A DNA stretch of 64,000 bases from Candidatus Saccharimonadales bacterium (GCA_041910055.1 JAYRRP010000003.1:301973-365972), one strand, 5' to 3'. Positions 2,110 through 21,265 are shown, counted from the first letter of the stretch. Numbers and translations are program-made. Notes: generated by a model not told the origin, from the letters alone.

Positions 2110-3855
2110 ATGTCCAAACTTATTACCACCCTGGTGGGTCCCCTCACCGGTAGGGTTACTATTACCAAACTTCAGATATTGACACGGGTGTTCACTCTCG
2201 GTGGTGAACTCGCGAAAGTGCTGATTGTCAGTTTCGGTTTGCTCACGTTTGTACAGTTAATATATCCGCCACAATTGGCACGGCCATTTGCTATTTCCTC
2301 TTATGGTCGAGTAGGGTTCAAGACTCGCCAATCAGTTGTAAACCAAATACACAAGCTTAATTCCACTCCAGTGGTCATAAAGCTAGAAAACCTTACCTAT
2401 ACCGAACAACCTTCTAGAATTGGAATTAGCGTGGAACCGCAAAAGGCAGCGAACCAGGCAGTAAACTATGGCTTAATGGAGCGGCTAAAGCCGTTCAGCC
2501 TGTTTAACCGTCGCGATTTGTATTTCGATAAGGAAATCGATAGCCATAAGCTTGATGAATTTGTGCAAAAAGCAATTGAAGAGAATAAACGGCCAGCGAA
2601 AAATGCAAAGCTAAGCCAAGATGCCAACGGTAATTACCGGGTGCAGAGCGGGGAAGTAGGCACTGAGTATCACTCTCAAGAATTGAAAGAGGCTATTGTG
2701 GCGATGGCTTTCGGTAAAAATGTCCAGGTTGCAATAAAGGGTTCACCAGTCGATCCTCCAATTACTGAACAGGAATTGAAAGCAGTAGTGGTCAAAGCTG
2801 ATGCGGCAGCACGTCTGGGCATGGTAGTTATCTTGGGCGGTGAAAGTCATTCTATTCCTAGTAATTTATTGAAGGATTGGGTACATGTGTCAGCTAATGA
2901 GGCGAATGGCACCGTAAGCCTAAGTTACGATAGAAAATCGATAGCCACTTGGGTGCAAAGCAAGTCCTCTCATTATTATCTATCGGCTACACCGACGGTC
3001 ACAAAACTAGTTGATGGCAAAACGGTGGAAACTCGACCGGGTAAAGCTGGGCAGCAGGTTGATATCGAACAGTCTGTAAAAGCAATTACCGATTCACTTG
3101 ATAAAGGTTCTTTTCTTGCGCAGGGAGTAATAAAACCAGTTTCGCCAAGTGCACAAATCTCACGTGGTTATTCGGCTACTAGCTATGGCCTTCAATTACT
3201 TATTAATGACTGGGCACATGAACAGGGCCGAGTACAGGTCGGTGTGGTGTTGCGCGAAATGGGCGGCCAGGGACGGCAGGCTTCTATCAATGCAGGACAG
3301 AGTTTTTTCACGGCTAGTTTTTATAAGCTCTTTGTAGCCCACTATTTGCTCTCTAAGATTATGAGTGGCCAACTCAATCCTAATACTCAGCTACAAGGGG
3401 GTAGAAGTATCATTACATGCGCAGAAGTAATGATTGTAAACTCCGATAATCCTTGTCCGGAAGCCGCGGCTGCGGTGTTTGGCTGGAGTCAGTTGCATGC
3501 GTTTGCCCGCGCAGCAGGCTTTGGTTCTACGACGCTTGCCGCTGGTAATATTCGTACCACTGCGGCGGACACTGCAGATTACATGACCCGGCTCTACCAA
3601 GGTAGTTTATTGGGTAGTTACACTGGTACTATGCAAGGATGGATGCAGCGCCAAATCTACCGTTCTGCTATCCCAGCTGGCGCGAAGGGGAGTACTGTGG
3701 CAGATAAAGTTGGCTTCTATAACGGTTCGTGGCACGATGCGGCAATTGTATCGGGCCCGAAAACTACTTATGTTTTGGTAGTCATGACAGAGGGTGTTGG
3801 CCCTGGTCCTATCGCTACCTTGACGCAGCGGATTCAGGCTACCTTTGGACAATAA
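2110..3855 (+). CDS. Membrane-anchored serine hydrolase (class A beta-lactamase / PBP-like C-terminal domain)
   Basis: N-terminal TM helix. The C-terminal domain has SxxK (SFYK), SDN (NSDN) and a KTG-like motif (DKVG), followed by YVLVVMT. Confidence 0.55.
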   Translation: MSKLITTLVGPLTGRVTITKLQILTRVFTLGGELAKVLIVSFGLLTFVQLIYPPQLARPFAISSYGRVGFKTRQSVVNQIHKLNSTPVVIKLENLTYTEQPSRIGISVEPQKAANQAVNYGLMERLKPFSLFNRRDLYFDKEIDSHKLDEFVQKAIEENKRPAKNAKLSQDANGNYRVQSGEVGTEYHSQELKEAIVAMAFGKNVQVAIKGSPVDPPITEQELKAVVVKADAAARLGMVVILGGESHSIPSNLLKDWVHVSANEANGTVSLSYDRKSIATWVQSKSSHYYLSATPTVTKLVDGKTVETRPGKAGQQVDIEQSVKAITDSLDKGSFLAQGVIKPVSPSAQISRGYSATSYGLQLLINDWAHEQGRVQVGVVLREMGGQGRQASINAGQSFFTASFYKLFVAHYLLSKIMSGQLNPNTQLQGGRSIITCAEVMIVNSDNPCPEAAAAVFGWSQLHAFARAAGFGSTTLAAGNIRTTAADTADYMTRLYQGSLLGSYTGTMQGWMQRQIYRSAIPAGAKGSTVADKVGFYNGSWHDAAIVSGPKTTYVLVVMTEGVGPGPIATLTQRIQATFGQ

Positions 3856-3857
3856 AC

Positions 3858-4928
3858 TTACACGTTAAATCGAAATTCCACAACGTCGTCTGGTTTGAGC
3901 ACGTAATTTTTACCTTCAGTGCGGACCTTGCCGGCGGCTTTAGCGGCAGCAACTGAACCGGTAGCAATCATATCAGCATAGCTAACGACTTCGGCGGCGA
4001 TGAAACCTCGCTCAAAATCAGTATGGATAACGCCGGCAGCTTGTGGGGCAGTGGATCCTTTGGGAATTGTCCAAGCCCGTACTTCTTTTGGTCCGGCCGT
4101 CAAAAAGCTTTGCAAACCGAGCATGTCATAAGCAGCATGAATTAGTTGGTTCAGTCCTGATTCCTGCTGACCGTAGCTCGCAAGTAGTTCCATAGTTTCC
4201 GCTTCGTCCAACCCACGTAGCTCACTTTCAAGTTTGGCGCATAAAAAAAGGGCTTGGGCTGGTGCGACCATACTACTGAGTTCAACCCGTTTTGCTTCAT
4301 TCCCAAGTGCTTCTTCATCGACATTAAAGATATAAATGACCGGTTTCGCGGTGATTAGATGCAAATCAGCTATATATGTCGGGTCGACACCTGCTTCACT
4401 GGCGAGTTTTCCTTCATCTAAATAACGCTCAACAGCCTGATAGGCCTCTAGGATGGGTTGGAGCTTAGGGTTGGCGCGCACTTCCTTCTCGAATCGTACG
4501 AGACGTTTTTGGACAGTATGTAGATCTGCTAACACTAATTCGGTTTGAATAGTTTGGATATCTTTTTTGGGGTTAGGCGCAGCATCAACGTGAACAACAT
4601 TTGTGTCCGAAAAGGTGCGGACGACGTGAGCTAAGACCTGGCATGAGCGAATATGACTCAAGAACTGATTGCCCAGGCCTTCTCCCTGGCTTGCGCCTGC
4701 TACAAGGCCGGCAATATCCACGAATGTAATAGTGGCTGGAATAATCCGATCCGTCTTATAAAGTGCCGCCAATTTTTCCAATCGGGGGTCGGGGATTGGC
4801 ACGGTTCCGGTGTTAGGTTCAATCGTTGCGAAAGGGTAATTCGCCGCCAGTATATTATTGTCGGTGAGTGCGTTGAATAAGGTCGACTTTCCTACGTTCG
4901 GCAGCCCAACAATCCCTATGCTCAGCAT
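3858..4928 (-). CDS. ychF: Redox-regulated ribosome-binding ATPase YchF
   Basis: MLSIGIVGLPNVGKSTLFNALT P-loop, an internal coiled-coil insert, and a C-terminal TGS-like ...EGKNYVLKPDDVVEFRFNV. Confidence 0.95.
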   Translation of the reverse strand: MLSIGIVGLPNVGKSTLFNALTDNNILAANYPFATIEPNTGTVPIPDPRLEKLAALYKTDRIIPATITFVDIAGLVAGASQGEGLGNQFLSHIRSCQVLAHVVRTFSDTNVVHVDAAPNPKKDIQTIQTELVLADLHTVQKRLVRFEKEVRANPKLQPILEAYQAVERYLDEGKLASEAGVDPTYIADLHLITAKPVIYIFNVDEEALGNEAKRVELSSMVAPAQALFLCAKLESELRGLDEAETMELLASYGQQESGLNQLIHAAYDMLGLQSFLTAGPKEVRAWTIPKGSTAPQAAGVIHTDFERGFIAAEVVSYADMIATGSVAAAKAAGKVRTEGKNYVLKPDDVVEFRFNV

Positions 4929-5098
4929 GTAGCCCAGCTTATTTTATTCATCTGTTAATTCTAACAACTAACTATTTTTTCGCATATAGCTGAGTACATG
5001 ATATTACTCGTTGTAGCTCAATTTCACTTGTGCTTGACAACAATAGATAAATGGATAGATACTAAGGTATACATCAAGGGTGGGAAAAAGGAGGTTCT

Positions 5099-5503
5099 AT
5101 GGCTGTACAAAATAACACTCCCACCGGTTGGGTCGGTTGGGCATATTTCGCGAGTTTTATGATGATTTTCCTTGGCTCGTTCAAGGCTATCGCGGGTCTT
5201 GCAGGTATCTTCAGGGATAATTTTTACGTGGTTACAGAAAACCATTTGTTAGCGTTCAATTACAAAACATGGGGATGGATCTATCTAATTCTGGGTATTG
5301 TAATCTTCATGGCTGGACTTGAGCTCTTGCGTGGGGCAGTTTGGGCGAGAATAGTTGCCATTACACTTGCCATAATAAGTTTGGTGGCAAATGCGGCATT
5401 TCTAAAGGCATATCCGTTCTGGACCATAACAATGATGGTTGTCGATGTACTTGTTATCTATGCCCTGACAGTACATGGCGCAGAACTCAAACAACGCGAC
5501 TAA
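5099..5503 (+). CDS. Small integral membrane protein (4 TM, function unknown)
   Basis: 134-aa ORF with hydrophobic helices, preceded by the SD ggaaaaaggagg. No motif recognised. Confidence 0.6.
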   Translation: MAVQNNTPTGWVGWAYFASFMMIFLGSFKAIAGLAGIFRDNFYVVTENHLLAFNYKTWGWIYLILGIVIFMAGLELLRGAVWARIVAITLAIISLVANAAFLKAYPFWTITMMVVDVLVIYALTVHGAELKQRD

Positions 5504-5548
5504 GTATTTCTACAAGCTTGGATATTTCTTGATATAAGCCTTCTGGCC

Positions 5549-5720
5549 TCATTGCTGCGAGAGGGCATCTCGGAGAGCGTAGAAGGCTGGCTTTGGTCGG
5601 TAGGATTTGTCAAATGGCAAGGGGCGTGGATCTTTTAAGCCGAGGTGGTTATACCATGTTTCCTTGTCCGTGATGCCGAGTAGGGCAAAGCAAAATACTT
5701 GCAAATGAGATAATTCACAG
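5549..5720 (-). pseudogene. Relic C-terminus of a GH10-type glycoside hydrolase (xylanase-like)
   Basis: Minus-frame translation ...VFCFALLGITDKETWYNHLGLKDPRPLPFDKSYRPKPAFYALRDALSQQ* (stop at 5551-5549). It matches the GH10 C-terminal signature (WG[IV]xDxxSW...PLLFDxNYxPKPA[FY]xAxxxAL). No start codon and no upstream remainder. It overlaps the promoter of the next gene. Confidence 0.5.
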
Positions 5721-5721
5721 A

Positions 5722-5750
5722 TTGACTTTTCACACTTATTTTGCTACAAT
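5722..5750 (+). promoter_or_regulatory. Sigma70-type promoter of the 5791 gene
   Basis: TTGACT (5722-5727), 17-nt spacer, TACAAT (5745-5750), about 40 nt upstream of the ATG. Confidence 0.6.
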
Positions 5751-5790
5751 TTGGACAGTTAAGCAAAAATAAAAACTTATAATACTATTT

Positions 5791-7488
5791 ATGGAAATTA
5801 CTCCAAAATCACCTCAGGAATTGGTCGCCCAGGCGAAGGACGCATATCCGTATTTTGGCGGTCTTTCTATGCCTGAAGACGAGGTGACGCGTTTGGACAA
5901 TCATGCCAGTGAATTAAAAGAAGACATTGAAGAGCTCACGCCCTATACGCTACCAGACCAAGAACTGGCATCAAAGTTGGCAGAAGTACAGCAAAGAGCA
6001 GTCGAAAGTGGGGTGTGGCGGGCTGATAAAGGTGAAGGGTCAGAAAAACGGCTTACTTTTGCTACTCGCAAAAGACAAGAGTGGGGTTATAACCAAGAAG
6101 AAGCAGCCACAGAGGCAGCTAAAGATTTACAGAGAAATGGCTATTTAGAGGCTATTAGGGATCAGCGAAAAGAGAAGGAGCGTCTATTTAGAAATCCGAT
6201 CAATGAGTACATTGGTCGCCATCAAATAAATGCAGAAACGGAAATACAAGAAATGAACAGTTTACTAGGGCGAACTGTTGATATTGCGACCCTAACCGAA
6301 ATAGAACGCACCAGGTTAGCTGGTGATTTTCCTTCAGGTAATTTTTTGTACCATGGCACTGGCACTGAACAGCTCGTGAAAGTATTAGATTCAGGTGTAT
6401 TGGCGAGCGGCCAGGCGTTACATACACGTGAGGCACGGGCTGCGGAAGCTGAGAGCCGCGATCCTGAGTTTATCCGTCGCAACTCAGGTTTTGAGGGTGT
6501 GTCGTGGAGCATGAACGGCATTGATGCGCTACCCGGTGACCGCTACCACTTAGCCGGTTTTGTTGCTGCTCCAGAGAGGGTACTGACTAGTAAGCAACAG
6601 CTAGCGGTGCCATCGCGGCCTGCACCAAATGAGGTTTTGCAGATTTCTGATGAAATTGAAGCGAATGAGTTTTATGATGCCAAAACACAATTTGAACTGT
6701 ACGGTAGCGTAGGCATGTTTGGTGAGACAAACTCTGTCTATAACAATCTCTTGGCTGCTAGTAAGTGGAAGGCAGAAGGACAATCAAAACCAAGCGAAGA
6801 ACCGATGCTGTATAGGGCCCGGCGTGGTGTATTGAGTCAAAAAAACTATAGAGAAAAGCTTCGCGAATTATTTAGCGTTGATGATAATGGCGTAATTCAG
6901 CTCGACCCGGATTTACTCCAACAGGTAGATGATGAAATTCCTGTTGCTGCTGTATGGTTGCAGGCAGCCATCGACACTGGGCGGCTTAAGGATACTGAGT
7001 TTACAAGTAAAGACGTGCTGACTATTATAGGGCAGCTTGATGAAGAGAATGTAAAGGAGCTTCTGCGAATCAGTCATCAGGACAAGCAAAAATATGAAGA
7101 AATAATTGATGAGAACGAATCTCATGCCGAGAACATAGAAGTTCCAGTGGAAAGTATGTATTTTGTGGCACCACGAAAGGACGCAGAAGCGTGGCTCAAA
7201 GTGATTGCTCGCAGTGACCATAAGCCAGCCGGTATCCTACTTTATGATGATAAAAAAGTTCGTTTGGAAAACTTTGCATCGTCACATAGGGGCGACCACG
7301 TAGAACTTACCGAGGAACTTCGCTCCGCAATTGAACCTGGCGAAGGCTATATCGATTACTCACAAGTGCTTGGTTCTGAGATGCGTGATGATATGCGAGC
7401 AGGCTACAAGCATCATGTGATTGGCGATAAACACTTACAAAATCGCCGATCTATCAAGAAAGCTGGAGATGAGTTAGTCATCACGTAG
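5791..7488 (+). CDS. Hypothetical cytoplasmic protein, 565 aa (orphan)
   Basis: Long ORF with its own promoter, no signal peptide or TM, acidic and coiled-coil rich. The only motif noted is FLYHGTG...GVSWSMNG (weakly ART/Tpt1-like). Confidence 0.7.
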   Translation: MEITPKSPQELVAQAKDAYPYFGGLSMPEDEVTRLDNHASELKEDIEELTPYTLPDQELASKLAEVQQRAVESGVWRADKGEGSEKRLTFATRKRQEWGYNQEEAATEAAKDLQRNGYLEAIRDQRKEKERLFRNPINEYIGRHQINAETEIQEMNSLLGRTVDIATLTEIERTRLAGDFPSGNFLYHGTGTEQLVKVLDSGVLASGQALHTREARAAEAESRDPEFIRRNSGFEGVSWSMNGIDALPGDRYHLAGFVAAPERVLTSKQQLAVPSRPAPNEVLQISDEIEANEFYDAKTQFELYGSVGMFGETNSVYNNLLAASKWKAEGQSKPSEEPMLYRARRGVLSQKNYREKLRELFSVDDNGVIQLDPDLLQQVDDEIPVAAVWLQAAIDTGRLKDTEFTSKDVLTIIGQLDEENVKELLRISHQDKQKYEEIIDENESHAENIEVPVESMYFVAPRKDAEAWLKVIARSDHKPAGILLYDDKKVRLENFASSHRGDHVELTEELRSAIEPGEGYIDYSQVLGSEMRDDMRAGYKHHVIGDKHLQNRRSIKKAGDELVIT

Positions 7489-7528: not shown

Positions 7529-7537
7529 TGGTATAAT
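7529..7537 (+). promoter_or_regulatory. Extended -10 promoter (TGgTATAAT), cassette 1
   Basis: tggtataat. The same element recurs at 10550 and 13743. Confidence 0.55.
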
Positions 7538-7584
7538 CGAAACCATAAACACTTTTTGGTGGGCAGTATTACTGTAAATAATCA

Positions 7585-7899
7585 ATGTTCAATATAAAAA
7601 AACCTTCTGGAGATCATCTTGCTCATCGAGTTGAGCTGTTGGGGCGCGTGGATAATGTTCAAAATCCTTCCAAGAAGAAAACAATCTTGCTTATTACAGC
7701 GGTAGCGTTATTGATCACAGTAGGAGTAAGTATATTTTTAATACAGAAAAATCATAAACCATCCGGCTCCAAACCAGCGGGTGCCGGTCAAGATAATCAG
7801 CAATATACCAATGGTAACTCTGATAAGCTCAAGCAAAAGCTTGACCAAGAAATTCAGCAAAAAGGTGAAAAACAAAGAGGAGAAGCCAAGAGTGAGTAA
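7585..7899 (+). CDS. Small single-pass membrane protein, cassette 1 (paralog of 10602..11129)
   Basis: MFNIKKPSGDHLAHRVELLGRV + TM helix. The first ~66 nt are nearly identical to 10602-10667. Confidence 0.75.
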   Translation: MFNIKKPSGDHLAHRVELLGRVDNVQNPSKKKTILLITAVALLITVGVSIFLIQKNHKPSGSKPAGAGQDNQQYTNGNSDKLKQKLDQEIQQKGEKQRGEAKSE

Positions 7900-10498
7900 T
7901 AGCATACCAGCCCGGCTGCTTATCCGTATTCCACGCAAGTGGTTGCTAGTAGGTCTTACAATCACCGCTTTGCTATTTATTATTCCGGGCAAAGCTCATG
8001 CGGCCGTGTCTGCGCCCGGTGGACCCGGTGGGCCGCCTTCTCCGGTCAATACTGCTTATTTTGATGGGAGTGTTGCTTTAGGGAATGCTATTGCCTGTGG
8101 CGATGGAACGTATACACGTTATCTCAAACATTTTTCCGCGCCGGAGCTTGACGATGCCGGGTCATATTATGTTTCCCATCAAAAGATAGTTAATTTGACA
8201 GGATGGTCGGGCTACTATGTATGTCCAGGGACAAATTATCGCTATAATTCGAGCCAGCACATTGTTTTTGCTATAGCTCCCGGCATGAAAACAAAAGCGG
8301 ACATGGCGGCTGCCGGAGGATGGGATCGAGGCACACAGGTGCTTGGAGGAACAGTCAACAGCGGCAGTGGTTCTTGGTGGCTTCAGTGGGGTATTGGCCC
8401 CACAAACTTGGCGCCAGGTTGGAATACTATATCGCTTAATTTTCAACCCGACAGCTGTACAACTCTCTCATCAGGTATTTGTAGTCCAATAGCTTCAATT
8501 TCACCGATTATAAGTTATATCTATTACAATCCAGGCGTACAAGATGCTGCTAACTGTAATGCTATTTCGGGCTGGGCCTTTGACTCGGACAACTGGTGGA
8601 CATCTATAAATGTAGATATGTATGATGGGCAGGCTGGAGCCGGAGGCACGCCTATAGGTAGATATCCTACTAATGTGCTTAGAAATGACGTAAACGCATT
8701 ATTCGGCATATCCGGTAATCACGGCTATTCTATCGCCACGCCTGCTGTGCTTAAGGACGGCAATGTGCATCAAATATATATGTATGCCATAGGTGTCGAT
8801 GGAGCAGGCAACATAGACGGCGGTAACTGGATGTTAGCAAACTCCCCAATTACAATAGGTCCGTGTGCCAAAAAACCTGTAGGCACAATAGATACTGCTG
8901 ATTGTGCGTCTATTACTGGTTGGGTGTATGATCCGGATAATACGAGTAAGTCGTTGGATATTAATATCTGGAATGGTCCTCCTGGATCTCCTTCGACTCT
9001 TCTCCAGACGCTCAGCGCAAACGTTCCCAGACCGGATGTTAATACCGCATTTGGTATATCGGGTAACCATGGCTTTAATATTGATCCTAGAACAATACCA
9101 GGCGTAGATCTTAGCCGGACAAATACTATATATATTGCGGCATATGGCGTGGATTCAGCTGGGAATAGGGATGGCTCAGATGCAATATTGGGTAAAGGAG
9201 CCCAACTGGCCCAATCAATCGGTCCGTGCGGTACCACCTCTGCCAATTTCACTCTCTCGCCAACCGCCCAGCTCCCAGTCCTGGATAATGACGAAGCTCC
9301 TAGTGTTATACAGTTTAATACCAGCTATGTAACCGGTACCGGCATACCGGCCGCTGGCGTCCAAGCAACCGCAACTCGCACCTACTTCTGGAAAAGGGGC
9401 GGGGTACGCCAAGTACCAGACATGCGTCCAGCAGCTGCCACTACTCAAAAGTTCACGAACGCGCAATTTACCTTTGCTGATCCGCCACTTAACGTACCGC
9501 CTCCGAACTTACAGGCAGGAGATGAAGTCTGCATAGGCCTTACGATTAACCCAGGCGGCGGTAGCGTTGATGGCGCTGGCAACGTAACCAGTCCCACACC
9601 GGCAAAATACTCTGAAGCTTGTGTTCGGCTTGCCAATAAACCCTACGTCTCTTTCTTTGGCAATGATGTCTTTACCGGCGCCCGCTTTGCCGGCCCTAGC
9701 GGCTGTAGTGGTGCGGTGCCTTCCAGTAACATTAAAGCCTTCAACCGTGGAGGGGCAGGCAGCCCTGGCTCTGGTAACCAACTGGGTGTCTTTGCCGTCG
9801 GCTCAATTGACCAGTTTGCCTCCGCCGCTCTACGAACGACTGCACCTACTCCCGCCACTGGTCTAACCTTCGCCAACTCGCCCCCTAGTTCCTGGGGTGG
9901 CAACTTCGGTGCCTCCACTTGTTTGCCAGATTACTTTGCCAGTGCCACCAGTCCCCAACCAAACAACTACCGAGTCTCTCCGGCAGCTAAAACAGTCATG
10001 GCCAACCCGGCTGGCAACCCAGAAATTATCTACGTCAACGGTGATGCTATCATTGACAACAATATTGTCTATGCAAACGCTGGTACCTGGAGCGCCCAAA
10101 ACCAGATCCCTAGTTTCTACCTCATCGTCAAAGGCAATATCTATATTAGCCAAAACGTGAGCCAACTAGACGGCGTCTACATTGCCCAACCTACTGGTAG
10201 TTCGAATACCGGCCAGATATATACCTGCGCCAACACACTTGCCAAGTCACTCTATCCAATGAGCCAGCTCTATACCCTCTGCAACAGACAACTGACCGTC
10301 AACGGCTCCTTCATCGCTTCCCAGGTCAAGCTGCTCCGGACTTTTGGCAGCTTGCGTGACTCTGTCACCCCTCCCGGCCGACCCGCTGAAGTTTTCCGCT
10401 TTAGCCCCGAAACCTACCTGACCTCAGGCCCCGTTCCTACTGGCACTACCTCGATTAAGAAGTACGACTACGTCACTTCATTGCCACCGGTGTTGTAG
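7892..10498 (+). CDS. Large secreted protein, cassette 1 (paralog of 11113..13707); putative surface/pilus-associated adhesin
   Basis: GTG start 8 nt after the SD agaggag, overlapping the upstream stop (GTGAGTAA). Signal peptide ...LLFIIPGKAHA|A. Two copies of a GWxxDxD...RPDVN..FGISGNHGF...GVDxxGNxDG domain. The C-terminus is conserved with the paralog (GNIYISxxVxQLDGVYIAQP ... LPPVL*). Confidence 0.75.
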   Translation: MSNSIPARLLIRIPRKWLLVGLTITALLFIIPGKAHAAVSAPGGPGGPPSPVNTAYFDGSVALGNAIACGDGTYTRYLKHFSAPELDDAGSYYVSHQKIVNLTGWSGYYVCPGTNYRYNSSQHIVFAIAPGMKTKADMAAAGGWDRGTQVLGGTVNSGSGSWWLQWGIGPTNLAPGWNTISLNFQPDSCTTLSSGICSPIASISPIISYIYYNPGVQDAANCNAISGWAFDSDNWWTSINVDMYDGQAGAGGTPIGRYPTNVLRNDVNALFGISGNHGYSIATPAVLKDGNVHQIYMYAIGVDGAGNIDGGNWMLANSPITIGPCAKKPVGTIDTADCASITGWVYDPDNTSKSLDINIWNGPPGSPSTLLQTLSANVPRPDVNTAFGISGNHGFNIDPRTIPGVDLSRTNTIYIAAYGVDSAGNRDGSDAILGKGAQLAQSIGPCGTTSANFTLSPTAQLPVLDNDEAPSVIQFNTSYVTGTGIPAAGVQATATRTYFWKRGGVRQVPDMRPAAATTQKFTNAQFTFADPPLNVPPPNLQAGDEVCIGLTINPGGGSVDGAGNVTSPTPAKYSEACVRLANKPYVSFFGNDVFTGARFAGPSGCSGAVPSSNIKAFNRGGAGSPGSGNQLGVFAVGSIDQFASAALRTTAPTPATGLTFANSPPSSWGGNFGASTCLPDYFASATSPQPNNYRVSPAAKTVMANPAGNPEIIYVNGDAIIDNNIVYANAGTWSAQNQIPSFYLIVKGNIYISQNVSQLDGVYIAQPTGSSNTGQIYTCANTLAKSLYPMSQLYTLCNRQLTVNGSFIASQVKLLRTFGSLRDSVTPPGRPAEVFRFSPETYLTSGPVPTGTTSIKKYDYVTSLPPVL

Positions 10499-10549
10499 AT
10501 AAGATTAGGTAAGTTCTTTATATAAACTTAGTAGGTATTTGAAGCCTTT

Positions 10550-10558
10550 TGGTATAAT
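10550..10558 (+). promoter_or_regulatory. Extended -10 promoter (TGgTATAAT), cassette 2
   Basis: ttttggtataatc, about 45 nt upstream of the 10602 ATG. Confidence 0.55.
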
Positions 10559-10601
10559 CAAGCGTAAGTAGTATTGGCGAGTAATCGTACGCAGATAATT
10601 T

Positions 10602-11129
10602 ATGTTCAATATAAAAAAACCTTCCGGAGATCATCTTACCCATAAAGTTGAGCTGTCTGGGCGCGTTACTACAGTCCAAAAACCTCATAATAAGAAGCTC
10701 ATCTTACTTGTAGTGGTATTTTTAATCCTCCTCGCCGCAGCCGGCTACTTCTGGTACACCAAACAACAATCAGCCAAGACCGCCAAGAACCCAGTCTGCG
10801 CAGAAGATCTTCTCCATCAAGCGGAACCACTGCTCGACAGCTCCAAGCGAGAACAGCTAAAACCCCTGGTTGACAACATCAAAAGCAAGAAGAACTATGA
10901 CAAAGACGCCAACTGTCTCTACATAGTAGTGACGTACCACGTCAACATGGCCGAAGGGAAGAACGCCCGTAAGTACTTTGAGCAATTGAAACAGATTTAT
11001 GATCCGAACAAACGGTTCAGCTTAACCGTTGGCAAACATGGTGGGATTGAAGATTTACAACTTCAAGTAGAGTACGCAGAAGCAAGAGAAAAGATAAAGG
11101 TAACGCCACGCTATGCCCCAAGTCACTAA
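10602..11129 (+). CDS. Small single-pass membrane protein, cassette 2
   Basis: MFNIKKPSGDHLTHKVELSGRV + TM helix. The ectodomain is longer (175 aa) than in the cassette-1 paralog. Confidence 0.75.
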   Translation: MFNIKKPSGDHLTHKVELSGRVTTVQKPHNKKLILLVVVFLILLAAAGYFWYTKQQSAKTAKNPVCAEDLLHQAEPLLDSSKREQLKPLVDNIKSKKNYDKDANCLYIVVTYHVNMAEGKNARKYFEQLKQIYDPNKRFSLTVGKHGGIEDLQLQVEYAEAREKIKVTPRYAPSH

Positions 11130-13707
11130 TCATATAAGCATTACCGGTGCGCAGCCCAGGCTACAGAAGGTATTTTTGTTTAGCCTTAAGCTTGCGGTCT
11201 TAAGTGCAATGGTGATGGTAGGAATGAGTATATTCAAGCCCAAGCCGGCCGCCGCATTAACCCCTAGAGATATCCCCGCAGATATTAGAGCAGCTATCGC
11301 TACCTACGAAGGTGGGTGTGCGGGTATGGCAGAAAAATATTTTTTGGTAGATTGGATATCGCCTCGTGGTGACTCAACCAACCGTGGCCCTGTAAACGTG
11401 AGCCCAGGTACGTCAGTAGTGCCTTTGCAGATCAACTATCTTATCTTTGTCTGTCATGACCAAACAAACTACTCCGGGGGTACGTGGGGTTACTTGGGTG
11501 ACGTTGGCTTACCAGATGATTTGCAAACACCGAGTGCAAGTCTTACACAAGACTATCGCTGGAAGAGCAATAGTTGGGCAACACCAGATGGAGTTGTATC
11601 GCCCAATCTTATTGGTGACGCCTACAATGTGGGTATCGGCAAAGATGCGAATAGTCGTTATTGGTTTGGCTATCAGTTTTTTGACTACGTCTCTCCATCG
11701 CCGATGTATAGATCAAAGAATATCACCGTGAATCTTACTGTGCACGAGTGGCTGACCTACCACAACGACTGGGGAAACACATGGTGCGCCATGCCGCCTG
11801 GCCAGACACAGCGGATTAGCGGAGGTGCTGCACCGTTTGGCTGTCCGGGTGGAAATGTCACGTATCCAATGCTGATTAATGTTACTGGGTGGGGTGCACT
11901 TGGCGTGCTCGATAAAATAGATTGTCCTCTTGGTTTTAAGGGCTGGGCCTTAGATATGGACAGCCCTAGTACCAGTATCGCAGTTCATATATATGCCGAT
12001 GCACCGGCAGGGTCTCCTGGAGCAAAGTTTGTCGGCGCCTATATGGCAGATCAGCCACGTCCGGATGTGAACGCTGTACTGGGGGTTACCGGCAACCATG
12101 GATTTGTAATTCCGCCGGGCAGCATACCGGCTCAGTTCAAAACAGGAGCAAGAACATTCTATTTATATGCCATTGGTGTAGATGGTAGCGGAAATATTGA
12201 TGGCCTGAACCCGCAAATTGCGACTCAAACGACAAACTTTACCGTTTGTGGCGGAGGGACCTCCACTTCCTTCACATTAACACCTGTTGCCCAGACACCT
12301 ACCAGTGAAGATGATGAAAGCGTGGGTGGGCAAACCTATCATAGTTATGTAACTGGAAGCACAGGAATACCTTCGGCAGGTGTCCAAGCCACAGTTACCC
12401 GAACAATAACTTATCACCGAGGGAGTTCATCTACTCCGTATATCAATTTAATTCCGCCTATCACAGAGACTCGTCGCTTTGGTTCTGGCCAAACGCCGAA
12501 CCCGCCCTATGAGGACTTTACTTATGCGGCTCCGCCTGGCGGCTGGCAAGCTGGTGACCAGTACTGTGTATTAATGACGGTATCCCCGGCGGCTGGCAAT
12601 ATAGATGGGTCAGGGAATGTCACGGCAGTGACAACTCCTTCGGCGGCTTCCGGGACGCCAGCTGGAACACCAACTTGTGCAAGAGTGTCAAACAAACCCT
12701 ACGTGCAGTTTTACGGTAACGATGTGCGATCTGGCGCAGGATTTATAAAGAGCGATGGAACTTGCGACCAAAGTACTGGCAATATCAAGACTTTTAATAA
12801 AGTCTGGGTCGATGTCGGTTGGATAGGATCAGGCGTCCAATTTGCCGCTTTTGCCCGTGGTGCTATAGATGGATTTATGACAGTGTCAGTTCGTAACCCT
12901 TCACTAGTTGATCCCCTAGCGCCAGTGGGATTATCCTTTGCGAATAATAATGTAGGGAATGTTCATACCGATTTGGCTGGGAATTTCGGGGCGAATTCTT
13001 GTCTGCCAGACTATTTTTCAGGAAAACCAACCACACCCCCTGGTAACACTGATGTGTATACAATTCCAACTACAGCCACACAGGAAAGTATTTATATTAA
13101 GCCGTCTGCACCCTATACGACAACTTTGGGTCTGCTAGGTGGTAGTTATGGCCCCGGTGCACGCAAAGCACTCTATGTGGACGGCGATGTGTTTATCCTA
13201 GGGAATATTACTTATAGCGGTACTTGGACTAAACGAGAAGATATACCCGCCATTTACATTATTGCGAAAGGGAATATATATATAAGTAAGGACGTTACCC
13301 AACTAGATGGTGTCTATATCGCCCAGCCTGATCCTGCTAAACCGGCCAGCGGTACGCTTAATACGTGTGTTGCCGATACCAGCAGGATACGATTATTACC
13401 AGCGCCAACAACCTATCATTCACCTACCCAAATGACTATGATTGATCTAATGACTGCCGGACAATGGAATTGTCTTAAAAAACTTACCTTTAATGGTGCC
13501 GTAATTGCAAAGCAGGTTAAATTACTGCGTACCTACAGCAGTTTACGTAACGCAGCTCTTCGCGAGCCATCCGCCACCAGCCAAGCCGCTGAGGTGTTTA
13601 ATTTTAGCCCAGAAGTATATTTAACAAATGATTTACCATTACCACTTACTGGGGGAGCCAATAAAGGAAAATATGGTAGCGCAACTACGTTGCCGCCTGT
13701 ATTATAG
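11113..13707 (+). CDS. Large secreted protein, cassette 2
   Basis: 864 aa with an N-terminal hydrophobic signal/anchor, one GWALDMD...RPDVNAVLGVTGNHGF...GVDGSGNIDG domain, and a C-terminal region collinear with 7892..10498, ending TTLPPVL*. Confidence 0.75.
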   Translation: MPQVTNHISITGAQPRLQKVFLFSLKLAVLSAMVMVGMSIFKPKPAAALTPRDIPADIRAAIATYEGGCAGMAEKYFLVDWISPRGDSTNRGPVNVSPGTSVVPLQINYLIFVCHDQTNYSGGTWGYLGDVGLPDDLQTPSASLTQDYRWKSNSWATPDGVVSPNLIGDAYNVGIGKDANSRYWFGYQFFDYVSPSPMYRSKNITVNLTVHEWLTYHNDWGNTWCAMPPGQTQRISGGAAPFGCPGGNVTYPMLINVTGWGALGVLDKIDCPLGFKGWALDMDSPSTSIAVHIYADAPAGSPGAKFVGAYMADQPRPDVNAVLGVTGNHGFVIPPGSIPAQFKTGARTFYLYAIGVDGSGNIDGLNPQIATQTTNFTVCGGGTSTSFTLTPVAQTPTSEDDESVGGQTYHSYVTGSTGIPSAGVQATVTRTITYHRGSSSTPYINLIPPITETRRFGSGQTPNPPYEDFTYAAPPGGWQAGDQYCVLMTVSPAAGNIDGSGNVTAVTTPSAASGTPAGTPTCARVSNKPYVQFYGNDVRSGAGFIKSDGTCDQSTGNIKTFNKVWVDVGWIGSGVQFAAFARGAIDGFMTVSVRNPSLVDPLAPVGLSFANNNVGNVHTDLAGNFGANSCLPDYFSGKPTTPPGNTDVYTIPTTATQESIYIKPSAPYTTTLGLLGGSYGPGARKALYVDGDVFILGNITYSGTWTKREDIPAIYIIAKGNIYISKDVTQLDGVYIAQPDPAKPASGTLNTCVADTSRIRLLPAPTTYHSPTQMTMIDLMTAGQWNCLKKLTFNGAVIAKQVKLLRTYSSLRNAALREPSATSQAAEVFNFSPEVYLTNDLPLPLTGGANKGKYGSATTLPPVL

Positions 13708-13742: not shown

Positions 13743-13751
13743 TGGTATAAT
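13743..13751 (+). promoter_or_regulatory. Extended -10 promoter of the pil operon
   Basis: tggtataat ends 9 nt before the pilM ATG (13761), implying a leaderless or near-leaderless mRNA. Confidence 0.5.
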
Positions 13752-13760
13752 CGGGTCAAC

Positions 13761-14801
13761 ATGAGCTTACTGAGTGGGGTATCTGACTTTTTTGGACTCG
13801 ACATCGGCACTTCGGCTATCCGTTTAGTGCAATTGCAGGGTAGCGGACGGAGTAAATCGTTAATTCGCTACGCCCACGTACCAATTGATAGTAAGGTTGC
13901 GATGAGTGATTCGAAGGCTGACCAACAAAAGCTGGTGCAGGCTATCCATGACTTGCTTTTGCAAGCAAGGGTTACTTCTCACCACGTGGCAGTAGGCATA
14001 CCGTCTCAACGTGTTTTTACTACAATTGTTGATATTGACCGGATGTCTCCGAGTGAGATCGCACATTCTATCGAACTTCAAGCTGATTCGCTTATTCCTA
14101 CCCCTATCGCTGAATCTAAGCTTGATTGGGCAGTCTTAGGTGATTCGCCCAAAGACAAAAACAAAGTTGAGGTGCTACTCAGCAGTGTGACCAATGAATA
14201 TATAGAATCGCGTTTGGATATGCTGGAATCTATTGGCTTGAACGTGATTGCCTTTGAACCGGATATGATGGCGCTGACCCGAGCGGTTATTCCAGCTGAT
14301 GCGACCACACCGCAAATGGTAGTCGATCTTGGCTTTAAGGCAACTGATATCGTGGTTTCGTATAACGGTACTCCTCGCTTGGCTCGGACTATTCCCACCG
14401 GCATGGAGGCTATCATCAAATCTGCCGCCCAAAACCTGAATATTGACGATAAACAAGCTAACCAGTTTGTGAACAAATTTGGCCTGGGCAAAGACAAGCT
14501 AGAAGGCCAGATCTATAATGCGATTAGCGGCACGGTTGAGATTTTGGTCAGTGAAATCGAGAAATCTATCAAGTTTTTCCAGAGTCGCTATACGTCTGTA
14601 AGGATTGACCGCATTATTGTGACGGGTAGTGCTTCATCATTGCCCGAATTTCCACTATTTATTGCGAATAAATTTGGCTTAAACGTAGAAATTGGTAATG
14701 CGTGGCGAAATGTCGCGTTTCCGGCTGATAGGCAAAATGAATTACTGGCAGCGGCCAGCCAGTTTGGCGTGGCGGCAGGCCTGGCGGAGCGAACAGAATG
14801 A
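13761..14801 (+). CDS. pilM: Type IV pilus assembly protein PilM (actin-like ATPase fold)
   Basis: FFGLDIGTSAIRLVQL... N-terminus, ~346 aa, and position ahead of the pilN/O-like genes. Confidence 0.85.
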   Translation: MSLLSGVSDFFGLDIGTSAIRLVQLQGSGRSKSLIRYAHVPIDSKVAMSDSKADQQKLVQAIHDLLLQARVTSHHVAVGIPSQRVFTTIVDIDRMSPSEIAHSIELQADSLIPTPIAESKLDWAVLGDSPKDKNKVEVLLSSVTNEYIESRLDMLESIGLNVIAFEPDMMALTRAVIPADATTPQMVVDLGFKATDIVVSYNGTPRLARTIPTGMEAIIKSAAQNLNIDDKQANQFVNKFGLGKDKLEGQIYNAISGTVEILVSEIEKSIKFFQSRYTSVRIDRIIVTGSASSLPEFPLFIANKFGLNVEIGNAWRNVAFPADRQNELLAAASQFGVAAGLAERTE

Positions 14802-15511
14802 TACAGTTTAACCTTCTCCCAGACGTAAAGTTGCAATATATTCGGGCCCGCCGGCTCAAGCAGACTATGATTACTGTTAGTGGTGTAGTCATTATTGCCA
14901 GCTTGGCAGTGACTATATTTCTTTTTATGGCTGTCCAAGTGTTCCAGAAAGAGCACATCAGTCATATCAATAAAGACATTAAGGAGTCAACTGACAAACT
15001 GCAAGGCACGAAAGATCTGGATAAGCTTTTGACAATCCAAAACCAACTGTCTAGCCTCTCCAGCTTGCATGACAGCAAGAAGGTCGGCTCACGGACATTT
15101 GGCTACCTTGCCCAGGTTACCCCCAAAGACGTGACTATTTCAAATCTTGAGGTTGACTTTGACGCTGGTACGATGAAGATTACCGGTGGCGCAAAAGAGC
15201 TAAGTGCTGCGAACCAATACGTGGATACTCTCAAGTTCACTACCTACACCTATCCAGAAACGAAACCAGACGGCGGCACCGAAAATAAAACAGGTAACGC
15301 CTTTACAAATGTTGTGCTGAGCAGCTGGTCCCGGAATGACAAAGAAACGACCTATACGATTGATCTTAGATTTGATCCGGCTATTTTTGATGTCCAGAAG
15401 CAAACTTCTCTCGTTGTTCCCAACCAGATCACAACCCGATCTTCCACTGAAAAACCAAGCAGTGACTCCGATATTTTCAAGCAACCGCAAACTAATAATC
15501 CAAAACAATAA
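14798..15511 (+). CDS. pilN: PilN-like pilus assembly protein
   Basis: MIQFNLLPDVKLQYIRARR + single TM (the PilN signature N-terminus). 4-nt overlap with pilM. Confidence 0.7.
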   Translation: MIQFNLLPDVKLQYIRARRLKQTMITVSGVVIIASLAVTIFLFMAVQVFQKEHISHINKDIKESTDKLQGTKDLDKLLTIQNQLSSLSSLHDSKKVGSRTFGYLAQVTPKDVTISNLEVDFDAGTMKITGGAKELSAANQYVDTLKFTTYTYPETKPDGGTENKTGNAFTNVVLSSWSRNDKETTYTIDLRFDPAIFDVQKQTSLVVPNQITTRSSTEKPSSDSDIFKQPQTNNPKQ

Positions 15512-15523
15512 GGTGTAAGTAGT

Positions 15524-16201
15524 ATGCCAAAACTTCAATTTTCATCCAAAAGGCTACAAATAGATCGGGCGAATGCGACAATGATTATATTTATTGCGGC
15601 CGCTGTGTTTGTGCTTATATTTTCGATAGTGGCGGTTAAGGCATTGTGGAGCCAGCGCGGCTACCAGGCCAGGGTGATTAAAAGCAAAGAAGAGGCTCGG
15701 GATCAATTGAAGAAGAATATTGACACGGTTGGTAAACTGGCCCAATCTTATCAGCAGTTTGTGACTGCTCCAGAAAATGTACTGGGTGGTAGCTCTACCG
15801 GTGGAAGTGAAAAAGATGGCGATAATGCCAAGATTGTGCTCGATGCACTGCCTAGTAAGTATGATTATCCGGCCCTTACCAGTAGTGTAGAAAAAATCCT
15901 TACCGACAAAGGCTTTAAAATCAATTCTATAACTGGTACTGATGATGAAGCCAATCAGACGAACAAAGATGAGAACCAAAAACCTGAAAAAGTTGAAATG
16001 CCTGTCAGTTTTAGTGTTACCGGTTCGTACCGATCCATTCAGGACCTGGTGCCAGTGTTCGAGCTTTCTATACGTCCGTTCCTCCTCAAGAAGATAACTT
16101 TGAGTGCCCAGGACAAAGACAAGCTGGATCTTAAAATGGACTTAAGTACCTACTACCAACCGAAGAAAAACCTCCAAATTACTACAAAGGAAGTGAAATG
16201 A
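15524..16201 (+). CDS. pilO: PilO-like pilus assembly protein
   Basis: Single TM followed by a coiled coil and a ferredoxin-like C-terminus, in the expected position after pilN. Sequence-level recognition is weak. Confidence 0.5.
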   Translation: MPKLQFSSKRLQIDRANATMIIFIAAAVFVLIFSIVAVKALWSQRGYQARVIKSKEEARDQLKKNIDTVGKLAQSYQQFVTAPENVLGGSSTGGSEKDGDNAKIVLDALPSKYDYPALTSSVEKILTDKGFKINSITGTDDEANQTNKDENQKPEKVEMPVSFSVTGSYRSIQDLVPVFELSIRPFLLKKITLSAQDKDKLDLKMDLSTYYQPKKNLQITTKEVK

Positions 16202-16446
16202 AACAAAAAGACATCATCTTACTTATCGTTGTTGCTTTTATAAGCGGTGTGCTGGCAATCTTAGCTACCAAATTCTTCATTGCGCCGCCCAAAAAACGTC
16301 AACAAAAAGTTGAAGTAGTAGAGGCTATTAATGCTGACTTCAAAGAACCAGATAAGAAATATTTCAATCCATCTGCTATCAACCCGACCAAAGTGATCCA
16401 GATAGGCCCTAGCGATAATCAAGACCCGATAAATAAGCAACAATAG
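16198..16446 (+). CDS. Small single-pass membrane protein of the pilus operon
   Basis: 82 aa with an N-terminal TM helix. Translationally coupled (ATGA overlap) to the pilO-like gene. Confidence 0.55.
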   Translation: MKQKDIILLIVVAFISGVLAILATKFFIAPPKKRQQKVEVVEAINADFKEPDKKYFNPSAINPTKVIQIGPSDNQDPINKQQ

Positions 16447-16458
16447 GGAAGCGCCACC

Positions 16459-18258
16459 ATGAGCGTTTTATCCGCATCTACCCAAAAACAGGTCGAGGAT
16501 GAATTGGTGAGCCAAGGCTTGTTGAGTGAAGAACGACTTAAGGAGTTAAAGACGCAGTCAGAGCGCGAAAATACCCCTTTTTTGGGTCTAGTTGTAAGCA
16601 GTGGCTATGTATCTGAAGAAGATTTAACTAAATCTATTTCTAAGGTCACCCGTGTCCCGTATGTGAACTTAAGCAATGCGCACATTGACCCGGAAGTGCT
16701 GACGCTGTTGCCGCAGGAAATAGCCGAGCGTTATATGGCTGTACCTTTGGGTGAAATGCAACATCGCCTGGTGGTGGCCATGCTCGATGCCGACAACGTG
16801 CAGGCAGCGGATTTTCTTTCTAACAAGATTGGCCGCCCTCTGAAAGTGTATGCCGCCAGCGAAATGGGCATTAAACGTGTCCTCAAGCAATATCAGGGCA
16901 GGATAGACAGTAAGATTGCCGGTGATCTTGAATCGGTGGGGAAAGAAGTGCTTGCCAACACGAACCTGGCCAAAGAAACCATGGCTGGGAACCACAGCAA
17001 TATCCGAACTATTGTGCAGGATTCGCCGATCAGTAAGGCACTGACCACTATTCTTGAATATGCTGCCAAAAACCGTGCCAGTGATGTCCATATTGAACCC
17101 CTTGAGAAGTCCTTAAAGATTCGAGCCCGGGTGGACGGGGTGTTGCGCGAAATCATGAAGTTACCCAAAAGTACCGAGGCGCCGTTGGTGTCCCGTATAA
17201 AGATTTTATCCAATCTTAAGATTGACGAACACCGTATTCCACAAGATGGGCAATTTACTATTGCCGTTGATAGTCGGCCGATTGACTTACGTATTGCAAT
17301 TTCACCGGTGGTGTGGGGAGAGCAGGTGGTCATACGTTTGCTAGACAAATCTGGTACAAGCTTACACCTTGAGGATATGGGATATCATGGGCGGGCTCTG
17401 CGGGCGATTCGTAAAGGTCTTGAGCAGCCGCACGGCATGATTCTCACCAGTGGCCCGACCGGCTCGGGCAAAACCACCTCTATGTACGCGCTTTTGCAGG
17501 AGATTAAGAAAGATACTATCAATATTGTTACTCTGGAAGATCCAGTTGAGTACAAAATGCCTGGCGTCAACCAGATACAAGTTAATACCGAAGTTGGGCT
17601 GACTTTTGCCACTGGTCTTCGCTCCATCTTGCGGCAGGACCCTGACGTGGTGATGGTCGGTGAGATTCGCGATAAAGAAACAGCCAACCTGGCAGTCCAG
17701 GCGGCCCTGACCGGGCATCTTGTATTCTCAACCTTGCACACAAATTCGGCCTCTGGTATTCTGCCGCGACTGCTCGATATGGGGGTTGAGCCATTTTTGA
17801 TTGCCAGTACAGTGCACACTGTCATCGGTCAGCGTCTGGTGCGGCGCATTAGCAAGGAAAACTCTTCTTATCAGTCGGACAAGGCCGAAACCGAAGCTAT
17901 TCGCCAAACCCTGGGCAAATTATTACCAGCTACGGATGCTGAGAAGGCCAGCGTGGGGGAAGATCTGGGCTATGAGAGCTTGCCACTGCGGGGGCAAAAC
18001 GCTTATACTTTATTTAAGGGCAAAGATAATCCCGATACTCCAGGAGGCTTCAAAGGTCGTATGGGCTTGTACGAAGTGTTTGAGATAACAGAAAAAATCC
18101 AAGACCTTATCCTAAAGCGGTCAACGAGCAATGAAATCCAAAAGGCTGCTCAAGAGGAAGGCATGGTAACTATGCGTGAAGATGGCTATCTCAAAGCATT
18201 GGCTGGCTATACAACCTTGGCAGAAGTGAACCGCGTGGCGGCGATGGAGAGCGCGTAA
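16459..18258 (+). CDS. pilB: Type IV pilus extension ATPase PilB (GspE family)
   Basis: GspE-N domains, Walker A LTSGPTGSGKTT, Asp box, Walker B DPDVVMVGEIRD, His box FSTLHTN. Confidence 0.92.
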   Translation: MSVLSASTQKQVEDELVSQGLLSEERLKELKTQSERENTPFLGLVVSSGYVSEEDLTKSISKVTRVPYVNLSNAHIDPEVLTLLPQEIAERYMAVPLGEMQHRLVVAMLDADNVQAADFLSNKIGRPLKVYAASEMGIKRVLKQYQGRIDSKIAGDLESVGKEVLANTNLAKETMAGNHSNIRTIVQDSPISKALTTILEYAAKNRASDVHIEPLEKSLKIRARVDGVLREIMKLPKSTEAPLVSRIKILSNLKIDEHRIPQDGQFTIAVDSRPIDLRIAISPVVWGEQVVIRLLDKSGTSLHLEDMGYHGRALRAIRKGLEQPHGMILTSGPTGSGKTTSMYALLQEIKKDTINIVTLEDPVEYKMPGVNQIQVNTEVGLTFATGLRSILRQDPDVVMVGEIRDKETANLAVQAALTGHLVFSTLHTNSASGILPRLLDMGVEPFLIASTVHTVIGQRLVRRISKENSSYQSDKAETEAIRQTLGKLLPATDAEKASVGEDLGYESLPLRGQNAYTLFKGKDNPDTPGGFKGRMGLYEVFEITEKIQDLILKRSTSNEIQKAAQEEGMVTMREDGYLKALAGYTTLAEVNRVAAMESA

Positions 18259-18302
18259 GTTATGGGAATTATTCAGACAGAAAGTTTGCAAAGGGGGTGG
18301 AA

Positions 18303-19367: not shown

Positions 19368-19374
19368 TCACGTC

Positions 19375-20694: not shown

Positions 20695-21165
20695 ATGCTT
20701 AAAAATTTAAAAAAACGTTCACAAGGCTTCACTATTATCGAAGTCCTGATCGTGCTAGCTATTGCTGGCTTAATCATTCTGATCGTGTTCTTAGCAGTAC
20801 CAGCACTACAGAGGAATAACAGAAACACGCAAATAAGAAATAATGCTGGCTCAGTGCTTGGAGGAGTTAACGAATTTGTTTCTAACAATAACGGACAACT
20901 ACCAACTGGTATAGCTACGGCAGCTGATGGGACAGTTACAATTAGTGGTGGTGCTGGTACCTCAGCGGTAACCACAAAAATTAAAGCTGGCACCACGGCA
21001 ATAAATGGTACCGCAATGCCTGCTAACACCGGAAGCATTGTAGTTTACCTTGATCGTAAGTGTAATGGCAATGCATTTGCCGCTGCTGCTACACCTCGTG
21101 CGTATGCAGCTGGTTTCTTAGTAGAAAGTGGCGCAGGGACTCCTACGCAGTGTCAAGAAAGCTAA
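20695..21165 (+). CDS. Major type IV pilin (prepilin with class III signal peptide)
   Basis: MLKNLKKRSQG|FTIIEVLIVLAIAGLIILIV, with the G/F cleavage-methylation site and E5. Followed by a strong terminator. Confidence 0.9.
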   Translation: MLKNLKKRSQGFTIIEVLIVLAIAGLIILIVFLAVPALQRNNRNTQIRNNAGSVLGGVNEFVSNNNGQLPTGIATAADGTVTISGGAGTSAVTTKIKAGTTAINGTAMPANTGSIVVYLDRKCNGNAFAAAATPRAYAAGFLVESGAGTPTQCQES

Positions 21166-21185
21166 AAAGTTTAGCTCCAATGCAA

Positions 21186-21213
21186 AAAGAAGCCCACAAA
21201 GGGCTTCTTTTTC
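21186..21213 (+). terminator. Rho-independent terminator after the pilin gene
   Basis: gaagccc-acaaa-gggcttc followed by ttttt. Confidence 0.8.
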
Positions 21214-21265
21214 AATGGCTGCTTATTTGTAATATGATTCCTGCAATACTGATATATTAGAAGCA

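Follow-up and report, generated by a model that had tools for sequence, protein, structure and literature searches.

In a 64-kb stretch of DNA from a Candidatus Saccharimonadales bacterium (GCA_041910055.1, JAYRRP010000003.1:301973-365972; hereafter the window, with positions counted from its first letter), two tandem gene cassettes lie directly 5' of the type IV pilus genes pilMNO-pilB-pilT-pilC, in the arrangement that an original prediction made from the sequence alone had described. Each cassette consists of a TGGTATAAT box, a gene for a small single-pass membrane protein and an overlapping gene for a secreted protein of about 865 amino acids (aa), whose Sec-type signal was judged by eye. 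Cassette 1 (genes S1 and L1) occupies positions 7585-10498 and cassette 2 (S2 and L2) positions 10602-13707, both on the plus strand, and the stop codon of L2 is separated by 54 bp from the start of pilM at 13761. The frames of the small and large genes overlap by 8 nt in the first cassette (GTGAGTAA) and by 17 nt in the second, as had been noted before.

The large protein L1 (868 aa; 7892-10498) starts with GTG, with AGAGGAG 10 nt upstream. It is built of a Sec-type signal peptide (7892-8002, AHA/A site), a distinct N-terminal region, two GW..D.D..RPDVN..GNHGF modules (8534-8866 and 8882-9175; GW modules below), a middle beta-sandwich and a C-terminal beta-solenoid-like domain, which defines the family and, together with its LPPVL tail, covers positions 9620-10495. 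For L2 (864 aa; 11113-13707) the reading frame was divided using a multiple alignment and an AlphaFold model with a mean predicted local distance difference test (pLDDT) score of 69.8. An N-terminal helix read as a Sec signal (residues 1-48, AAA/L site) is followed by the poorly modelled 'WISPRG' domain (residues ~50-250), a single GW module that is modelled as an Ig/FN3-like beta-sandwich (11902-12249, residues ~264-379) and the middle beta-sandwich (FTLTPVAQTP...QAGD..C; 12259-12672, residues ~383-520; pLDDT about 85-93). The C-terminal beta-solenoid-like domain of short stacked strands (12670-13647, residues ~521-845) then leads into the tail ...ATTLPPVL-COOH (13648-13704, residues 846-864), which is disordered in the model (pLDDT <50). 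By eye, the N-termini of both proteins end in AxA-type sites. The predicted kinship of the two proteins holds in both of its parts: a tblastn search with the GW module of L2 finds the two L1 copies at 44% and 42% identity (E 4e-20 and 1e-19), and L1 and L2 align collinearly over 626 aa with 39% identity (E 2e-102), both ending in LPPVL.

Pfam, NCBIfam and PDB sequence and profile searches gave nothing meaningful for L1, L2, S1 or S2. None of the four has an N_methyl match or a prepilin motif; five downstream pilins do match PF07963. In the Pfam and NCBIfam scans L1 and L2 showed neither a wall-anchoring module (LPXTG with a transmembrane (TM) tail, SLH or CWB2) nor a match to Secretin (PF00263, N0/N1) or another machine family. 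The LPPVL end is no sortase signal, since the chain stops at LPPVL-COOH with no hydrophobic helix or basic tail after it; a sortase gene is found near one locus among those viewed, L002. A Foldseek search with the full-length L2 model retrieved only generic tandem Ig/FN3 sandwiches (RbmA, arrestin, C3). The GW module is an accessory repeat that travels between proteins: it connects L2 with proteins that bear a GH25 muramidase, CHAP, PG_binding_1 or subtilase domain and are not related to L2 in any other way. These proteins carry one to five copies of it, usually two or three; given the domains that it accompanies, it may bind wall glycans.

The C-terminal domain belongs to a very large family, for which Pfam and NCBIfam have no model. 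At E<=1e-3 a profile of eight such domains matches 6014 cluster representatives (clusters at 50% identity), 2821 of them at E<=1e-30. Among the 150 best matches, from proteins of about 270-1300 aa, the match lies at the protein C-terminus or a few residues from it in all but one, a C-terminally cut fragment. A word-indexed search yielded 66 members, none of them with a Pfam domain, and the few named ones are Saccharibacteria. The family motifs (a Cys pair, GNIYI..V.QLDG.YIAQ, LTVNG.FIA..V.L.RT and a terminal LPP[VI]L) are all present in L1 and L2. Family members end in [IV][TS]xLPP[VI]L, and this tail is strongly conserved though disordered in the monomer model, a combination that would be typical of a docking motif. 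Columns C752, C787, G795, R806, E827 and P862 are invariant in an alignment of 150 sequences; because the nearly invariant columns are mostly Gly, Pro, Cys or hydrophobic, the domain resembles a disulfide-bearing scaffold more than it does an active site. In short members a signal peptide is followed directly by the KPY...LPPxL domain. Thus the C-terminal domain is the functional core, and the N-terminal parts, which are very different from each other and reach ~1000 aa, are additions. The idea that short members are self-anchored by an uncleaved TM helix, and hence partner-free, was dropped, as their cleavable-type signal ends right before KPY.

Modelled alone from 103 sequences, the C-terminal domain forms short stacked strands with a predicted template-modelling score (pTM) of 0.84. 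The model supports a beta-solenoid fold class, with no homology established, and agrees with the beta-helix-like C-termini expected from the sequence. A Foldseek search of this model against PDB gave nothing at E<=1e-3. The best, weak matches are all solenoids: the competence pilin ComZ, DUF3494 ice-binding proteins, the HpmA secretion domain, tapirin C-domains and PL6 lyase. The top match, ComZ (6qvi), has E 0.075, probability 0.47 and template-modelling scores of 0.29/0.22. The DUF3494 ice-binding-like solenoids (6eio, 3wp9) rank second, with target-side scores of 0.35-0.38, but with E 0.4-4 they are not significant either, and the domain has no Pfam DUF3494 match. Nothing was found in the BFVD viral library by fold search or among PDB sequences by profile search.

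The position of the family gene before pilM is widely conserved. A species scan with a 4-sequence alignment as the query, one genome per species, yielded 78 loci, nearly all titled Saccharibacteria, Saccharimonadales or Patescibacteria; the taxonomy reported here is that of these loci. Linkage to pil genes was scored by tblastn with the Pil proteins and C-terminal domains of the window. In 69 of the 78 loci pilM starts 43-267 bp past the last family copy on the same strand, and in two more it lies within 1.4 kb; four loci have a contig end or a further cassette after the family gene, and three (L009, L033 and L041) have no pilM within 6 kb. Four contigs found by protein identity, L002 and L004 among them, all carry the family gene directly before pilM. 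If the cassette is defined by a bitopic partner gene that overlaps or abuts the large gene and by a last large gene less than 300 bp before pilM on the same strand, the window contains it in full, both partner genes overlapping their large genes. Tandem copies number one to three per locus, with two or three in twelve loci. PilM identity to the window protein is 58-91% in nearly all loci (44% in L061), and with PilM as diverged as this the arrangement must be old. The synteny survey proposed along with the original prediction therefore revealed a very strong linkage to pil genes.

In L033 the cassette (4451-6915) follows the minor pilins and is flanked by xerC and ndk, where the pilus cluster has its distal end; both ends of the cluster can therefore host cassettes. 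Some cassettes, those in L009 and L041, are away from pil genes. As for absence, the gene table of S. epibionticum has ychF directly next to pilM (PMC10633639, Table S1), so the family gene is missing at that site; for oral lineages this observation comes from the table of this one genome. The type IV pilus genes of S. epibionticum are essential (PMC10633639), and the absence of the family gene from its ychF-pilM site suggests that the family is an accessory and not a core part of the machine.

The expectation of a dedicated membrane partner is also supported by comparison of the loci. A bitopic ORF (open reading frame) is found immediately 5' of the large gene in 54 of the 66 cases with enough upstream sequence; the median length of these conserved, translationally coupled partners is 183 aa, and 27 of them overlap the large gene by 4 nt. 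Most contain tetratricopeptide repeats (TPR) above Pfam thresholds (TPR_1/2/8), and a TPR model exceeds the gathering score in the partners of L008, L020, L018, L025, L007, L041, L014, L044 and L017. S2 (175 aa; 10602-11129) consists of a cytoplasmic tail, a TM helix and a helical ectodomain with two Cys. This ectodomain aligns with, and is related to, the TPR partners found in other genomes; in S2 itself the TPR signal is sub-threshold, the best Pfam match being ARM_TT21_N (E 0.077). S2 belongs to a two-Cys subclass and falls in partner class 1 with L001, L016, L057, L076 and others. S1 (104 aa; 7585-7899) is a truncated partner: its cytoplasmic tail is followed by a single TM helix and a tail rich in K, Q and E, the TPR-like ectodomain is lacking, and Pfam and NCBIfam give no TPR or other family match. 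The 85-aa partner of L033 is similar, comprising only a tail, a helix and a short polar stretch.

A second class of partners is ~300 aa long and gave a weak SurA_N_3 signal in one (L036) of the four scanned. In L065 (3760-7095) and L011 (2650-6963) the large protein itself begins with a fused TM helix and SurA_N_3 module, the latter scoring 33.6 and 39.2 bits, respectively, against a cut-off of 27.2; L062 and L072 have the same fusion. There is no cleavable signal in these proteins, which look like partner-large fusions. The twelve large genes without a separate partner encode three short forms (~375-420 aa) and nine long proteins (841-1569 aa), the latter including the SurA_N-fused L062, L065 and L072. 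The class of the partner varies together with the N-terminal class of its large protein, which is uninformative alone because the two genes are adjacent and inherited together. The SurA_N_3 module (PF13624) recalls SurA/PrsA, but the cassette partners have no peptidyl-prolyl isomerase domain, and the PrsA-like foldase of the window is a separate gene. This foldase (30590-31657, plus strand; SurA_N_3 and PPIC rotamase), the general extracytoplasmic chaperone of the genome, carries the same SurA_N_3 module as some cassette partners. Separately, a hydrophobic-V-x-G motif precedes the TM helix by 5-20 residues in the cytoplasmic tails of about half of the small partners. Its version in S1 and S2 is VELxGRV (7585-7680 and 10602-10700), and a cytoplasmic component may bind to it. 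We also considered binding of the LPPVL-COOH tail by the TPR ectodomain, as in PEX5-PTS1 and Hop-EEVD. This idea was weakened by the partner-less short members, which keep the tail; S1 and the L033 partner, having no TPRs, weigh against it as well.

Tandem copies in the array have exchanged sequence. Three cassettes are present in the closest relative, GCA_041906765.1, the PilM of which is 91% identical. Residues 1-400 of L2 are ~75-80% identical to the first large protein of this genome and residues 386-864 are 71% identical to the third, so that L2 is, judging from these alignments, a mosaic; L1, over its last ~250 residues, shares 70-84% identity with the C-terminal end of the first. S1 and S2 have a common N-terminus, MFNIKKPSGDHL(A/T)H(R/K)VEL.GRV, with 24 of 32 residues identical (75%; E 5e-15) and nothing alike past residue 32 (BLASTP). 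At the DNA level 58 of the first 66 nt are identical, the same count as reported originally, and identity is 78% across 115 nt (7578-7692 vs 10595-10709). This similarity had been ascribed either to gene conversion or to constraint on the cytoplasmic tail. The ectodomain of S2 is 83% identical to that of the first partner in the relative, and the N-terminal tail of this orthologue is unrelated. For this reason the near-identity of the S1 and S2 5' ends seems best explained by recent gene conversion in this lineage; the weak family-wide tail motif leaves some room for constraint.

The exact sequence TGGTATAAT occurs three times in the window, at 7529-7537, 10550-10558 and 13743-13751 on the plus strand, 5' of S1, S2 and pilM. 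By chance 0.52 copies per window are expected, and at least three were seen in 4 of 100 shuffles. All three are extended -10 boxes lacking a -35 element, and a sigma-70 scan did not pick them up for that reason. The box of cassette 1 falls in a 21-nt direct repeat, the other copy of which is at 10539-10559. A promoter had been predicted for each cassette; a box precedes both, with the third before pilM in addition, and all are candidate promoters. The end of this third box is only 9 nt before the pilM ATG at 13761, and therefore the pilM transcript may be leaderless or nearly so.

The core pilus genes form a block on the plus strand (13761-20592): pilM (13761-14801; Pfam PilM_2), pilN (14798-15511; PilN), pilO (15524-16201; PilO), an 82-aa TM ORF (16198-16446), pilB (16459-18258), pilT (18297-19367) and pilC (19375-20592). 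The same order is annotated in L002-L004, along with T2SSE/T2SSF matches. The 82-aa single-TM ORF between pilO and pilB is conserved, at 78-88 aa, in all four annotated Saccharibacteria loci and matches by position SEML1_0107, which is essential in the transposon sequencing (Tn-seq) data of S. epibionticum; it is an unnamed component of the pilus machine. Further downstream on the same strand (20695-25043) are genes for a 156-aa pilin, the prepilin peptidase PilD, three more N_methyl pilins and a PilX_N protein, and the cluster ends at 25075-26567 with a xerC-like integrase on the minus strand, followed by ndk. On the other side of the cassettes, two short ORFs at 5549-5766 (minus strand) resemble what would be left of the C-terminus of a GH10 xylanase. 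In the same place, pieces of a GH10 gene, 143 and 211 aa long, are found in the close relative L001, and this is probably a decaying gene. A 565-aa protein (5791-7488, plus strand), with no signal peptide and no Pfam or NCBIfam match, has a 75% identical copy in L001 at the same position 5' of the cassettes. A 581-aa protein with PG_binding_4 and a class-A beta-lactamase-like domain (2110-3855, plus strand) matches by position the 'serine hydrolase' SEML1_0101 of S. epibionticum. Four large ORFs of 536-1009 aa without a Pfam match (34681-36291, 38197-41124, 41088-43178 and 57112-60141) contain neither the LPPxL domain nor the GW module. Rfam and tRNA scans revealed no RNA element in the 7.4-14 kb region.

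The cassettes probably serve the type IV pilus as an accessory that has not been described before. In the reading that we favour, at a probability of roughly 0.4, the large proteins would be pilus-linked, non-pilin surface or adhesin proteins with a PilY1-like layout, and the small proteins their membrane-anchored chaperones or tethers. Consistent with this are the tight synteny with pilM (69 of 78 loci), the L033 cassette at the distal end of the pilus cluster, the Sec-type signal, the optional and variable N-terminus joined to a conserved C-terminal domain, and the presence of several paralogues per genome. The large and small proteins would be made from overlapping frames so that both appear together. 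The partner, with its cytoplasmic tail, TM helix and TPR/SurA-N-type ectodomain, would serve as a dedicated extracytoplasmic chaperone or tether, holding the large protein at the membrane beside the pilus platform until folding is complete or the protein is collected. The C-terminal solenoid and the flexible LPPVL-COOH tail would couple the large protein to the pilus apparatus or filament, most likely by docking to a minor-pilin tip complex, like PilY1/PilC elsewhere. The N-terminal part, that is, the variable head, the Ig-like GW repeats and the middle beta-sandwich, would face outward and touch the host or substrate surface. Recombination between tandem copies would generate mosaic proteins and converted 5' ends.

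The likeness to PilY1/PilC (PF05567) is one of layout: a Sec rather than a prepilin signal, a gene in the pilus cluster, a variable adhesive N-terminus with a conserved C-terminal domain and, as M. xanthus illustrates (PMC11525922), the presence in a single genome of several paralogues that differ at the N-terminus. However, the C-terminal fold is a predicted beta-solenoid here and a seven-bladed beta-propeller in PilY1; L1 and L2 have no PF05567 match at E<=1 in Pfam; the gene precedes pilM, whereas that of PilY1 is among the minor pilins; and the large protein is co-translated with a bitopic TPR-type partner. In the favoured reading L1 and L2 would be located at the pilus tip. ComZ of Thermus thermophilus likewise presents a beta-solenoid in a type IV pilus-related system, but it is a true pilin with the solenoid inserted in the pilin fold, whereas L1 and L2 have no N_methyl or prepilin motif.

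Several observations weigh against the favoured reading. Synteny alone cannot separate a protein on the pilus from one that is co-regulated with it. The ComZ match is not significant, and hhalign comparison of the C-domain profile with the local PilX_N protein and a 275-aa pilin showed no similarity. Short members have neither the N-terminal 'head' nor a partner, and the conserved domain must therefore act on its own. S1 and the 85-aa L033 partner have no TPR ectodomain, so that a chaperone domain is not always needed. Finally, the N-terminal regions form a few conserved classes, with a median identity of ~30% vs ~40% for the C-terminal domain, and are not hypervariable, unlike many host-range determinants.

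A more specific form of the favoured reading, which we regard as tentative and rather unlikely to hold in full, is that the LPPxL-tail family is the Saccharibacteria-specific counterpart of PilY1, with docking at the tip, interchangeable host-choosing heads and a co-translated TPR/SurA-like loading tether.

The strongest competitor places the large proteins outside the pilus, as surface adhesins that are merely co-located or co-regulated with it and anchored to the membrane or wall by the partner. The model here is the tapirins of Caldicellulosiruptor, a bacterium that lacks an outer membrane and encodes these secreted beta-helix adhesins beside its type IV pilus locus. The two cassettes are each preceded by a TGGTATAAT box of their own, distinct from the pilM box, the cassettes of L009 and L041 away from pil genes fit such a role, as does the architecture of a beta-solenoid with Ig-like modules, and tapirin C-terminal domains (6n2b/6n2c) are among the weak fold matches. 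However, these matches are at noise level (E 5-9, probability 0.01), tapirins have no LPPVL tail, and no partner gene is known for them. Moreover, the pre-pilM position kept in 69 of 78 species is tighter than co-regulation requires, and a known wall-anchoring module is lacking from both L1 and L2. Pilus-independent adhesins thus appear doubtful, while deserving to be taken seriously.

The family could instead be a structural part of the pilus machine in the envelope, forming a collar or conduit that crosses the wall of these monoderm-like cells in place of the missing secretin and is served by a pilotin-like TPR partner. TPR pilotins (PilF/PilW/Tgl, TadD) are small TPR proteins that act in pilus systems as dedicated helpers of a large, beta-rich envelope protein, and the cassette partners resemble them in their above-threshold TPR matches. 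The fixed position beside pilMNO and the short members consisting of the conserved domain only would suit a machine part, and bacteria of the candidate phyla radiation (CPR) lack PilQ (PMC6744442). On the other hand, pilotins are outer-membrane lipoproteins acting on secretins, whereas the partner here is a bitopic protein of the cytoplasmic membrane in a lineage without PilQ, with a sub-threshold TPR signal in S2 and none in S1. The large proteins match no Secretin or other machine family, the domain is modelled as a monomeric solenoid and not as a ring-forming fold, and there are one to three copies with very different N-terminal additions. With the gene also absent at the site in S. epibionticum, which makes a functional, essential pilus, we consider a machine part improbable.

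An enzymatic role, in which a beta-helix polysaccharide lyase or hydrolase opens the wall for the pilus or attacks the host envelope and the N-terminal modules target it, seems even harder to accept. Glycan-degrading enzymes are common among right-handed beta-helices, GW modules are found with wall hydrolases in other proteins, the residues R806 and E827 do not vary in the alignment, and PelI and a PL6 alginate lyase occur far down the fold lists. Against this, the lyase matches have probabilities of 0.15 or lower, the conserved columns are mostly of the scaffold-typical kind described above, and neither the Pfam, NCBIfam and PDB searches nor Foldseek assigned the proteins to any enzyme family, an assignment that would have counted against the original prediction. 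Lastly, we give very little credence to the view that the ychF-pilM gap is a permissive insertion site for fast-evolving surface-protein genes without any tie to the pilus, for although the cassettes have their own promoter-like boxes, the region also holds the decayed GH10 gene and the unrelated 565-aa gene, and ychF is directly beside pilM in S. epibionticum, the same strand and the 43-267 bp gap to pilM are kept in 69 of 78 loci, also between species with PilM identities of only 58-75%, and the second cassette site is the other end of the pilus cluster.

Overall, the layout of the locus given in the original prediction stood; its adhesin role and its place on the pilus are retained here as conjecture. 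It is with type IV pili that Saccharibacteria and other ultrasmall epibionts locate and grip their hosts. The papers on Saccharibacteria pili consulted here name pilins and PilBCDMNOT and do not mention this gene pair. What is new is a very large family in a known niche, that of non-pilin surface proteins encoded in the pilus locus, with an unusual co-translated partner. Tn-seq data exist for one species, and most of its type IV pilus genes are essential (PMC10633639); the apparent absence of the family at its site in an oral species offers a natural comparison. If the family is indeed the PilY1 counterpart of this group, cassette copy number and mosaic recombination would constitute a host-range switchboard. 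A family of more than 6000 clusters, which keeps its place at the head of the pilus locus in the majority of the species-representative genomes found, is a concrete, testable candidate and could be the missing host-recognition or pilus-accessory component of these bacteria.

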